Shown one piece after another: positions 25,452-28,400 of a stretch of 64,000 nucleotides of DNA (the first letter of the stretch is position 1; the number at the start of each line of letters is the position of its first letter). The translations under genes were made by a program, and so were the position numbers. The notes beneath the pieces are model-generated. The model had not been told where the DNA came from. It saw nothing but the letters and a program-made list of their open reading frames with translations, and did not search any database. Source of the stretch: Leucoraja ocellata (taxonomy: Eukaryota). The DNA is taken from positions 2,356,001 to 2,420,000 of the forward strand of contig JAWMAR010000353.1 of assembly GCA_036785375.1 (NCBI GenBank). The letters run 5' to 3'.

Positions 25452-28400
25452 GTGAGTAATGAGTTGGACAAATTCCTCACACGTTTCTCAGTGCTATATC
25501 CCCTACACCATTCCCCTTCTGCCCACTCTAGAACCCTCCCAATTTATTTCCTATTGATAATTAGAGTGGGGGATTCATGGTCAATATTTTATCCTCGCCA
25601 TTCATGCCTTTTTTTAACTTGCAGGTGTCCATTCCGATGTCGTTCTCACTCAGCCCAAGACAGGGACCGCGGTTCCTGGAGGCTCCATCACACTGACCTG
25701 TAAAACCAGCGGGTTCACTCTTAGCAGCTACTATATGTATTTGATCCGTCAGGTCCCCGGGCAGGGGCTGGAGTGGCTGCTTGCTTACCACGCGCCGACT
25801 AGCACCGACTACTTCGCTCCAGGGATCGAGAGCCGATTTACTCCGTCCAAAGACAATTCGAATAATATGTTCACCGTGATCGCCAGGAACCTGAAGATCG
25901 AAGACACCGCTGTCTATTACTGTGCGAGACATGTGGGGTCACGGTGCTGCAAACAGCGACTTCCTCGTACAAAAACCTGGACACCAAGTTTAATCCTGCT
26001 GCAACCTACAAGCACCGTAGGAGAGGCCGTGTGAAGCAAATTCAAATGAATTTCACCGCTTAAAGTTACATGGATTGTTTTGAGAAATGTCCAACTGTCT
26101 TCCGACCAATTAACGTTATTTTACATGAGCTTTAGAAGAACAGCGTTTAGCTTTACAAGTGACAGCGAAGAGTCCCATGGGACATCCATCCTCTGTTAGC
26201 TGTACATGCATCAGTTCTTGAAGAGCTGTATTTGACATGGCATGTTTCACTGTGCTATAGTACTATCCTGACTACTGGGGAGGAGGAACCATGGTGACGG
26301 TAACCAGCGGTAAGAAACTTCATCCTATTCAATATCTAGATGTATCCAGTTGTACTTTTAACCTATATTTCCAATAATTATATTAAATTGTTCTTCTACA
26401 TTAATTACCCATTCATTGCAATGTTGGATCGATGTTGCTTTAGAATGTTATGTGATTTTGCTGCTAGGAGATTCCCGATTTAAACGCCTTATGTGCTATG
26501 ACTTTCGATCCTTTGACTATGAAGTGGATGCGGTTTAGTTCCAAATTAGTGGAACATTTTGCATCAATTTGCTTTCACTATGCTTTCTAATTGTTTGAGA
26601 TTGTTGTGGTCCTTGATCTGCGATGCATCGAACTGTATTTTCTAATCAACAGCAGGTATTTGGTCTCAGTGAAACATATGAAACAAACATAGTAACGGAT
26701 AAAAGGTACACAAAAAAGCTGGAGAAACTCAGCGGGTGCAGCGGGTTCAGTCTGAAGAAGGGTTTCGGCCCGAAACGTTGCCTATTTCCTTCGCTCCATA
26801 GATGCTGCTGCACCCGCTGAGTTTCTCCAGCTTTTTTGTGTACCTTCGATTCTCCAGCATCTGCAGTTCCTTCTTAAACATAGTAACGGATAAATCCTGG
26901 GTGTAAAATGTTCAAGTTTTTAAAGTGTATGTATTAATTGGTGAAATCGCCTTGCCACCTTTAATCCAATCGCTAACAAAACTTGCATGGAAGAAGTAAA
27001 AATATCTTGCAGCAAAACACAGAAGTGCAAGGGTCAGGGTTAATTGCGCAGTTATATATCTTGAAGTACAATGAATAGGAAGGAATAGTGGATGCTGATT
27101 TACGCTGCCGATTGACACAAAGCTGGAGTAACTCTGCCTCTCCCGCTGAGTTACTCCAACTTGTTTTGTCTATCTTGAAGTACAATGAGTTGGCCATGTG
27201 AACCAATGTTACAGCAAAGCTAAGAAAGCAAAGTCCGTGAAACGCGATCTATAGAATGACAATGTACCGGGTGTACTAGGTACAGAGGAACTGAAGGAAA
27301 TTAACATTATATGGAAATGTTAATCCACGTGTATTGTGTTATTCATCTTTATTTCACCAATAATTGGCTCTGTGGTAATTGGAACAATGAATTTCGGTGG
27401 TGTTTAGACAGAGATATTTGGATTTTTGTGGAGGTTCAGCAAATTTGTGTTATGTGATTCATCCCATCGGCGGTATGATTCAGCCGGTCACTGTGGGAGA
27501 CGATATTGTTGCGCAGTTTGACGTGTTTGTCCGTTCAATTCGATGTGGCAGCGACCGGGTATTTCTGTTGTATGACGTGTCCGATTATGTTATTTCAATG
27601 AACGCAAAGAAGATATATGTTTTAAAATAAAAATAAGAATATATTACTAGAAATCATAAATAGGAACAGTAAATGTTGCAAACGCCTAGAGGGTCACGCA
27701 GCCTGTGGCGAAAGACAAATCCCATAGAGGGGAGCCGAATGACAAGTTGTAGCCCAGAGACCAGACTTCGTTCCCGAAATCAGGTGCAGACGGTGAGAAC
27801 TGTGCGTTCTCCCTGTGGTTTCTTACTGGTGCTCAGCTTTCCCCCCACAACCCAAAAGAGTGCAGGTTTGCAGATTAAATGACCTGGGTGATTGACCCGG
27901 GTGGGTCGGGGGTGAATGCGATAGTGTGATAACGTGGAACTTGTGTGTGGCCCTGGATTTGGTTGGCAGAAGGGTCTATTTCTATGCTATACCTCTACTG
28001 AATTCGCCATGGTTTAGTCCCCCAATGATAGTCGACATGGAAAATGCTTGGTTTTCTCTTTCCACAGTTGCTGCCTAATCTGGTTTATGTCAAAGATCAC
28101 GATTTTTCCCATTTGGAAAATGCGTTGAATGTATAATGGGGAGATTTCGGAACAGTTGTAGTTTTGGAATAACGTTTAATCCATGGATTTATTAGAAAGA
28201 GAATTTGAATCCATGTTTGTCTGTGGCTCCCAATGTCATTTAAACATAAAATGTTTCTCTATTTAGTAAATTGCTAATGAAAAATATCAGTTTTACGAAT
28301 AATTATGGTAAAAAAAAGGAACAATTGGGAAATAAAATGGAATGTTGGAAACTAAATTTTCTCTGCTATTTTAGACAATAGACAATAGGTGCAGGAGGAG

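Follow-up and report, generated by a model that had tools for sequence, protein, structure and literature searches.

The locus

The window, the whole 64,000-nucleotide stretch of Leucoraja ocellata DNA analysed here, contains a complete IgM heavy-chain mini-cluster with leader, VH, JH, four C1-set exons, secretory tail and two transmembrane (TM) exons, all on the forward strand. All of the exons are open with canonical splice sites, and the promoter and both RSSs are intact. The coding leader exon (25406-25451) matches its paralogues in the promoter/leader alignment and is followed by a GT donor at 25452. The VH exon (25625-25939) scores 52.9 bits against the Pfam V-set and is joined to D1 in the germline; contigs run across the V-D1 join in sequencing runs X1 and X4. 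Within this exon V extends to 25929, followed by 3 nt of either N or V end and by the 3' remnant of D1 (25933-25939), which keeps its natural end. The D1 3' RSS (25940-25977, forward strand) has a 22-bp spacer and the same heptamer and nonamer as in the split paralogues. Next come the D1-D2 intervening DNA that awaits somatic excision (25978-26226) and the D2 5' RSS with a 12-bp spacer (26227-26254, reverse strand). The latter is unlike the paralogues only at the last base of the nonamer, which may be an allele or an assembly error. A junction stub (26255-26261, forward strand) carrying a TAG triplet (26258-26260) connects this RSS to JH (26262-26309), which has an untrimmed 5' end, the WGGG motif and a GT donor at 26310. 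The C-mu exons are CH1 (30471-30767), CH2 (32867-33184), CH3 (34606-34905) and CH4 with the secretory tail (36713-37104), with an internal donor to the TM exons after 37042. TM1 (40761-40888) and TM2 (41022-41030), which encodes two residues and a stop, complete the cluster.

The locus has the arrangement of a cartilaginous-fish IgM cluster, in that a single leader-VH, D1, D2 and JH set comes with its own C region of four C1-set domains, a secretory tail with a penultimate Cys and two TM exons. All four C exons scored above the C1-set cut-off in a profile search. The top four protein matches of the V region, 57-65% identical to it, are without exception Ig-like proteins of sharks or chimaeras. 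No skate IgM chain was among the results of protein searches at near and at longer lengths, in which the best matches to the window V reached 65% and 64%, none of them close. The isotype name IgM is assigned by analogy, from the exon layout given in passages of PMC4279169 and from features of skate IgM.

At ~52000-64000 the window carries a long simple-repeat tract. Its strand bias flips near 58000 (AT skew +0.5 to -0.6), pointing to an inverted arrangement, and the tract yields spurious RSS-like matches. The framework-2 Trp is a conserved consensus residue of V domains. The framework-2 residue at window 25730-25745 is Leu in every translated VH of the 40 clusters described below, except for a Met in L048.

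The gap between V and J is only 315 bp and is flanked by the 22-spacer and 12-spacer RSSs. Since this stretch matches the D1-D2 interval of the split paralogues (87-96% over the intervening DNA), V is already joined to D1 and the D2 5' signal already lies on J. On the V side, V is fused to D1 with the D1 3' RSS kept, and the V RSS, the D1 5' RSS and the V-D1 interval are gone. On the J side, the D2 5' 12-RSS is kept upstream of J, and the D2-J interval and the J RSS are gone. A J segment with its own RSS was considered and rejected; the RSS is the D2 5' 12-RSS, whereas every unjoined J has a 23-RSS. Judged from its sequence, the cluster is a VD1-D2J IgM cluster inherited half-assembled.

Germline status of the junction

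The first-pass annotation treated the D-J join as inherited and called for the TAG to be verified in raw reads. The sequencing runs agree with the former and confirm the latter. A 93-nt contig matches 26228-26317, with no other letters, in three of the four runs compared (X1, X2 and X4), at contig depths of 100.9, 3.3 and 17.8. These runs are three samples from three studies, one of which could be the source of the assembly. At 25802, a base in CDR2, X1 and X2 disagree with the window, as does X2 at two positions in introns, so these runs do not merely reproduce the assembly. The exact junction in three runs from three studies therefore indicates that the join is germline, and that the TAG is neither an error nor a somatic intermediate.

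The opposite reading holds that an assembly error produced the join or the stop, or that the assembly caught a somatic intermediate from a B or T cell. It is already largely refuted and we regard it as highly improbable. Somatic rearrangement in shark lymphocytes normally includes a VD-DJ intermediate, and such intermediates, as well as in-frame stops, are described for nurse shark IgM in the relevant part of PMC2435157. In addition, the contigs of X1, X2 and X4 disagree with the window at 26225-26227, just outside the 12-RSS nonamer, so that there, as at 25802, the window bases may be alleles or assembly errors. However, the nurse shark intermediates are clone-specific lymphocyte products (PMC2435157, same part), whereas three samples share the window junction letter for letter, including its N/P nucleotides, and independent somatic events would not repeat it.

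Run X6 (organism B, ~91% sampled) does not cover the D-J junction, and the loose ends that it shows at the D1 and D2 signals are of the unjoined type; this coverage gap carries no claim of species specificity. An RNA comparison at 98%, with 1-6% of the raw runs sampled, gave one partial read in X22 and none in X23, X24 and X20. The C exons were dropped as a tracer of expression, their paralogues being 98-99% identical.

The in-frame stop and the joins that avoid it

In the JH frame, 26255-26278 reads L*YYPDYW, and the TAG lies directly before YYPDYW as the first-pass annotation had described. A blunt join of the V-D and DJ ends is, as it had also stated, out of frame and meets a TGA, with 37 nt between the Cys and Trp codons. 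Its further claim, that at least 4 nt must be lost from the DJ end, is borne out by an enumeration of N-free joins (V-D trim 0-8, DJ trim 0-11), in which a stop is present in all in-frame joins that lose 0-3 nt of the DJ end. A 4-nt trim is required but does not by itself guarantee a stop-free join. If the V-D end is untrimmed (trim pair 0,4), the TAG is re-formed from the last T of D1 and the remaining AG of the stub through a 1-nt overlap. The next in-frame join at the untrimmed V-D end requires a 7-nt stub trim and uses a 2-nt GT overlap, the longest at this end. It is productive and encodes CARHVG-YYPDYW, a product that three trim pairs yield. The enumeration shows that coding-end trimming can remove the TAG.

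A similar dependence on trimming is known from human IGHD genes, in which junctional stops are removed by exonuclease trimming and productive use of a gene with a stop in a non-dominant frame relies on this process (PMC3759170, in the part cited). In both systems, the stop can be re-created by the partner end or by N addition. Unlike in human IGHD, the stop in the window is locked into the J frame by the inherited join, which leaves a gene with no stop-free fallback frame.

The stop was predicted to lower the productive fraction, and simulations agree. The six independent germline D1-D2 joints found in the same genome have D2 5' trims of 7, 6, 7-8, 4, 3 and 3-or-5 nt by hand scoring, that is, at least 4 nt in four to five of the six. 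The D1 3' end is intact in four of the five assignable germline joints (also hand-scored). On a trim model derived from these six hand-scored joints, which involve another end sequence, 55-79% of simulated productive joins survive relative to a stop-free version. The simulated productive fraction is 0.18-0.23 with the stop versus 0.28-0.34 without it, and 0.21-0.33 for a split cluster. Generic symmetric trim models place the productive fraction at 12-74% of the stop-free version. At a mean trim of 2 nt only 12-19% of productive joins survive, and the simulated productive fraction is 0.04-0.05.

The CDR3 was also expected to be short and stereotyped. The first expectation is not supported. The CDR3 has 10-12 residues on the genome-derived model, and the stop shortens it by only 0.3-1.7 residues in the generic models; nurse-shark means are 11.3-11.6 codons (PMC2435157, in part), on definitions that may differ from our count. 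The second expectation holds insofar as one product is favoured: on the genome-derived model, the overlap product accounts for 71-78% of productive joins when no N is added and for 12-23% when 3-6 N are. This bias arises mostly from the pre-joining itself. Trimming and N/P addition are typical of shark junctions (PMC2435157, in part). Combining this norm with the simulated survival and CDR3 length suggests that the cost of the stop is probably moderate, that the loop is not notably short, and that its stereotypy would come mainly from pre-joining.

Origin of the stub

The stub had been taken as a plain piece of D2. This is only partly supported. Its first 5 nt agree with the middle of one D2 type, a match that a random 5-mer would reach with a chance of 0.008, but D2 lacks its first 4 nt beside the intact RSS, so a plain D2-J join does not explain the stub. 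Three of the five matching nt also fit a 5-nt P palindrome of J. Positions 26257-26266 form a perfect 10-nt palindrome centred on the first base of the untrimmed J, and the TAG spans the D2-like letters and the palindromic addition. An untrimmed coding end is the expected place for P nucleotides (PMC2193153, in part), and germline RAG joining with trimming and P addition has been reported (PMC2193156, as summarised in a portion of PMC2193153).

We slightly favour an origin in which the stub would be a D2 remnant plus 2 P nucleotides, the 5' border of D2 having been altered beforehand in a separate event; L004, whose D2 is 3 nt shorter at this border, supports this reading. A plausible though less probable origin would be a hybrid joint between the D2 5' RSS and J, in which the stub would consist of 2 N and 5 P nucleotides and contain no D2, a reading supported by L031. 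Later ordinary mutation appears an improbable source. A simple inverted joining of D2 was rejected: 7 nt match the reverse complement of D2, but the upstream RSS and the interval are the un-inverted D2 5' ones.

In L031 (G000:C1356, ~249720-250200), a J that has lost 5 nt directly abuts the D1 5' 12-RSS, and no letters of D1 or D2 are present. The arrangement resembles a germline hybrid joint by which a V-D-D-J cluster became a V-J gene of the light-chain type, with a 23/12 pair. A germline hybrid joint was found in horned shark IgH (Kokubu 1988, as described in part of PMC2193153), in which germline RAG attached an RSS to the coding end of another segment. The window stub and L031 fit this pattern. 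The horned shark joint is an inversion of the D1-D2 interval, whereas the joint in the window would be a deletion putting the 12-RSS on J, and, unlike the published case, a hybrid joint is only one of two readings for the window cluster.

Length-altered coding ends beside intact RSSs occur in L004, L008, L039, L042-L047 and L049. The altered ends are of several types: D2 5' shortened by 3 nt, J 5' shortened by 3 nt, D2 3' shortened by 4 nt, J 5' extended by 2 nt, and the D2 3' end replaced. Their frequency is 6/32 in joined lineages versus 2/120 in split clusters (Fisher p = 0.001), and 3/28 in joined lineages when the window and L031 are left out and a shared change is counted once (p = 0.047), the counts being hand-scored and the clusters not independent. 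The altered ends in joined lineages could be germline open-and-shut or hybrid joints, for which these counts are suggestive only. A literature search for germline open-and-shut RAG joints in sharks returned no papers. This family-wide hint is probably of more specialist interest than the TAG itself.

The cluster family

A census by J pattern gave 40 matches, all of which could be parsed. Half of the clusters (20/40) are split. The 20 germline-joined clusters comprise 4 VD-D-J, 13 VDD-J, one V-(12RSS)J (L031), one VDDJ (L048) and one VD-DJ, the window cluster. There were 71 candidates for extra CH4 copies, of which 40 were scored. None of the 12 stretches fetched upstream of such copies contained a V, J or leader (one ended at the contig end after CH1), and the census was therefore kept at 40. 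Downstream of clusters, CH4 copies that are nearly identical follow one another at intervals of ~40 kb (G000: C1454, C1196, C404, C1544, C1461, C1356, C2299, C2034). The extra copies look like orphan tandem duplicates of the 3' part of C-mu.

None of the 24 unjoined D2 segments has a stop in the relevant frame and the unjoined J starts are also stop-free, so the TAG was most probably created by the old germline join. A junctional in-frame stop is present in only one of the 20 joined clusters, that of the window. In simulated fresh D2-J joins, a J-frame stop appears in 6-11% with N additions and in ~1% without. By chance, 1.1-2.2 junctional stops are expected among 19-22 germline joints, a figure that extends the rate for D2-J joins to every joint, including some of common ancestry. 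As one was seen, no special explanation is needed.

In the tree, L007 (C2335) is the sister of the window cluster with a support of 0.85. It has a 1-nt loss in the G-run of J and a damaged D2 3' RSS, both possibly read errors. The loss shifts the frame and produces a TAA in J, a lesion of a different kind from a junctional stop. No cluster other than L048 (C1868) is a fully joined VDDJ, and L048 is out of frame.

Discussion

Germline-joined IgH clusters (VDD-J, VDJ and VD1-D2J) of horned shark and little skate share the V-D1-D2-J-C mini-cluster organization of the window. The VD1-D2J clusters described there (PMC2193153, in part), and VD-DJ germline clusters as also stated in part of PMC5192425, are in the same state as the window, with one 22/12 RSS pair left. 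As in the window's family, split and joined clusters exist side by side in these species. The window cluster differs in that its D-J stub contains an in-frame stop and lacks the first 4 nt of D2 beside the retained RSS. Our literature search, with the primary skate and horn-shark papers lying outside it, returned no description of a germline D-J stub with an inherited stop or of a D2 lacking its first 4 nt beside the RSS. The excerpts of PMC2191167, PMC12227049 and PMC7555362 contain nothing decisive on the window cluster. The cluster is a minor variant of a known arrangement, with a stop of the sort that V(D)J joining handles routinely.

The first-pass annotation proposed that the stop could be an early step of pseudogenisation or a built-in repertoire constraint. 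Our analysis lends support to neither. Across the promoter, leader, V, the two RSSs, the four C exons, the two TM exons and the splice sites, no second lesion was found. In a comparison of the promoter, leader and V (787 nt) with 21 other rows, the only true private difference is intronic, at 25521. An apparent 9-nt promoter insertion was discarded as an alignment artefact, being an ancestral tract common to L007, L039 and L005. Because the analysis found no lesion that rearrangement could not remove, the cluster does not qualify as a pseudogene. As for a repertoire constraint, nothing indicates selection for the stop: it is found in a single cluster, and one stop is at the chance level. The frameshifted J and damaged RSS of the sister L007 suggest that the window lineage may be under weak selection.

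The likely explanation is that this is an otherwise intact VD1-D2J IgM cluster whose TAG arose by chance during germ-cell RAG joining and would be trimmed off in a large share of B-cell rearrangements. Two germline joins, V-D1 and D2-J, would have fixed both ends and left one 22/12 deletion for the B cell. Joins that lose at least 4 nt of the stub, do not re-form the TAG and are in frame would give a mu chain, and the remainder would fail in the same way as out-of-frame joins. The predicted cost is ~20-45% of productive joins. With few N additions, CARHVG-YYPDYW would dominate through the GT overlap.

An unlikely alternative is that the cluster is a young pseudogene that is effectively silent, either because somatic trimming is too short or because the locus is not used, so that almost no productive chain is made and decay is not yet visible. 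The low productive fraction simulated for a mean trim of 2 nt would fit this, and the lesions of L007 and the out-of-frame L048 indicate that failed germline joins persist in the family. The family is also young, with IgM clusters 96-99% identical, leaving little time for lesions to accumulate. On the other hand, the cluster is free of a second lesion from the promoter to the TM exons, and the germline joints of the same genome trimmed the D2 5' end by 3-8 nt. Selection of the stop as a filter seems quite improbable. Here the stop, together with the GT overlap, would channel joining to one public innate-like CDR3 (CARHVG-YYPDYW) that is useful early in life. This idea draws on the enumeration, in which the longest overlap at the untrimmed V-D end is in frame and productive and is reached by three trim pairs, and on the large simulated share of this product without N. 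It also draws on a junction that is identical in three runs with differing flanks, and on the early expression advantage of germline-joined clusters mentioned in reviews (part of PMC4279169). However, the stop occurs in one cluster of 40 and has not been amplified, while VDD-J lineages reach up to 4 copies. One such stop is expected by chance, the N/P additions normal in shark joints (PMC2435157, in part) work against a fixed product, and the GT overlap would favour the same product without any stop. A bolder proposal, which we find doubtful, combines several of these elements. The stub would be the fossil of a hybrid or open-and-shut joint made by RAG in the germline, with others like it in the family, and the stop and the in-frame GT overlap would make the cluster a near-fixed innate-like antibody gene that needs one RAG cut and obtains a public CDR3 by forced trimming.

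If the TAG is, as we consider likely, a chance product of germ-cell joining, the junction is a small example of the germline legacy of RAG: an unselected join, stop included, in an otherwise intact gene. It could also serve as a natural reporter. Both of its ends are fixed and cluster-specific, so somatic junctions would give the distribution of trimming at one end. They would also reveal how far an overlap of 1 or 2 nt biases joining in a cartilaginous fish. The cluster would have a larger significance only if one public CDR3 dominated early life. Elsewhere in the family, an identical V-D1 junction is present in the VD-D-J cluster L002 (C404) and in the VDD-J clusters L027 and L029 (C865, C2360), and may record stepwise germline joining with duplication between the steps.
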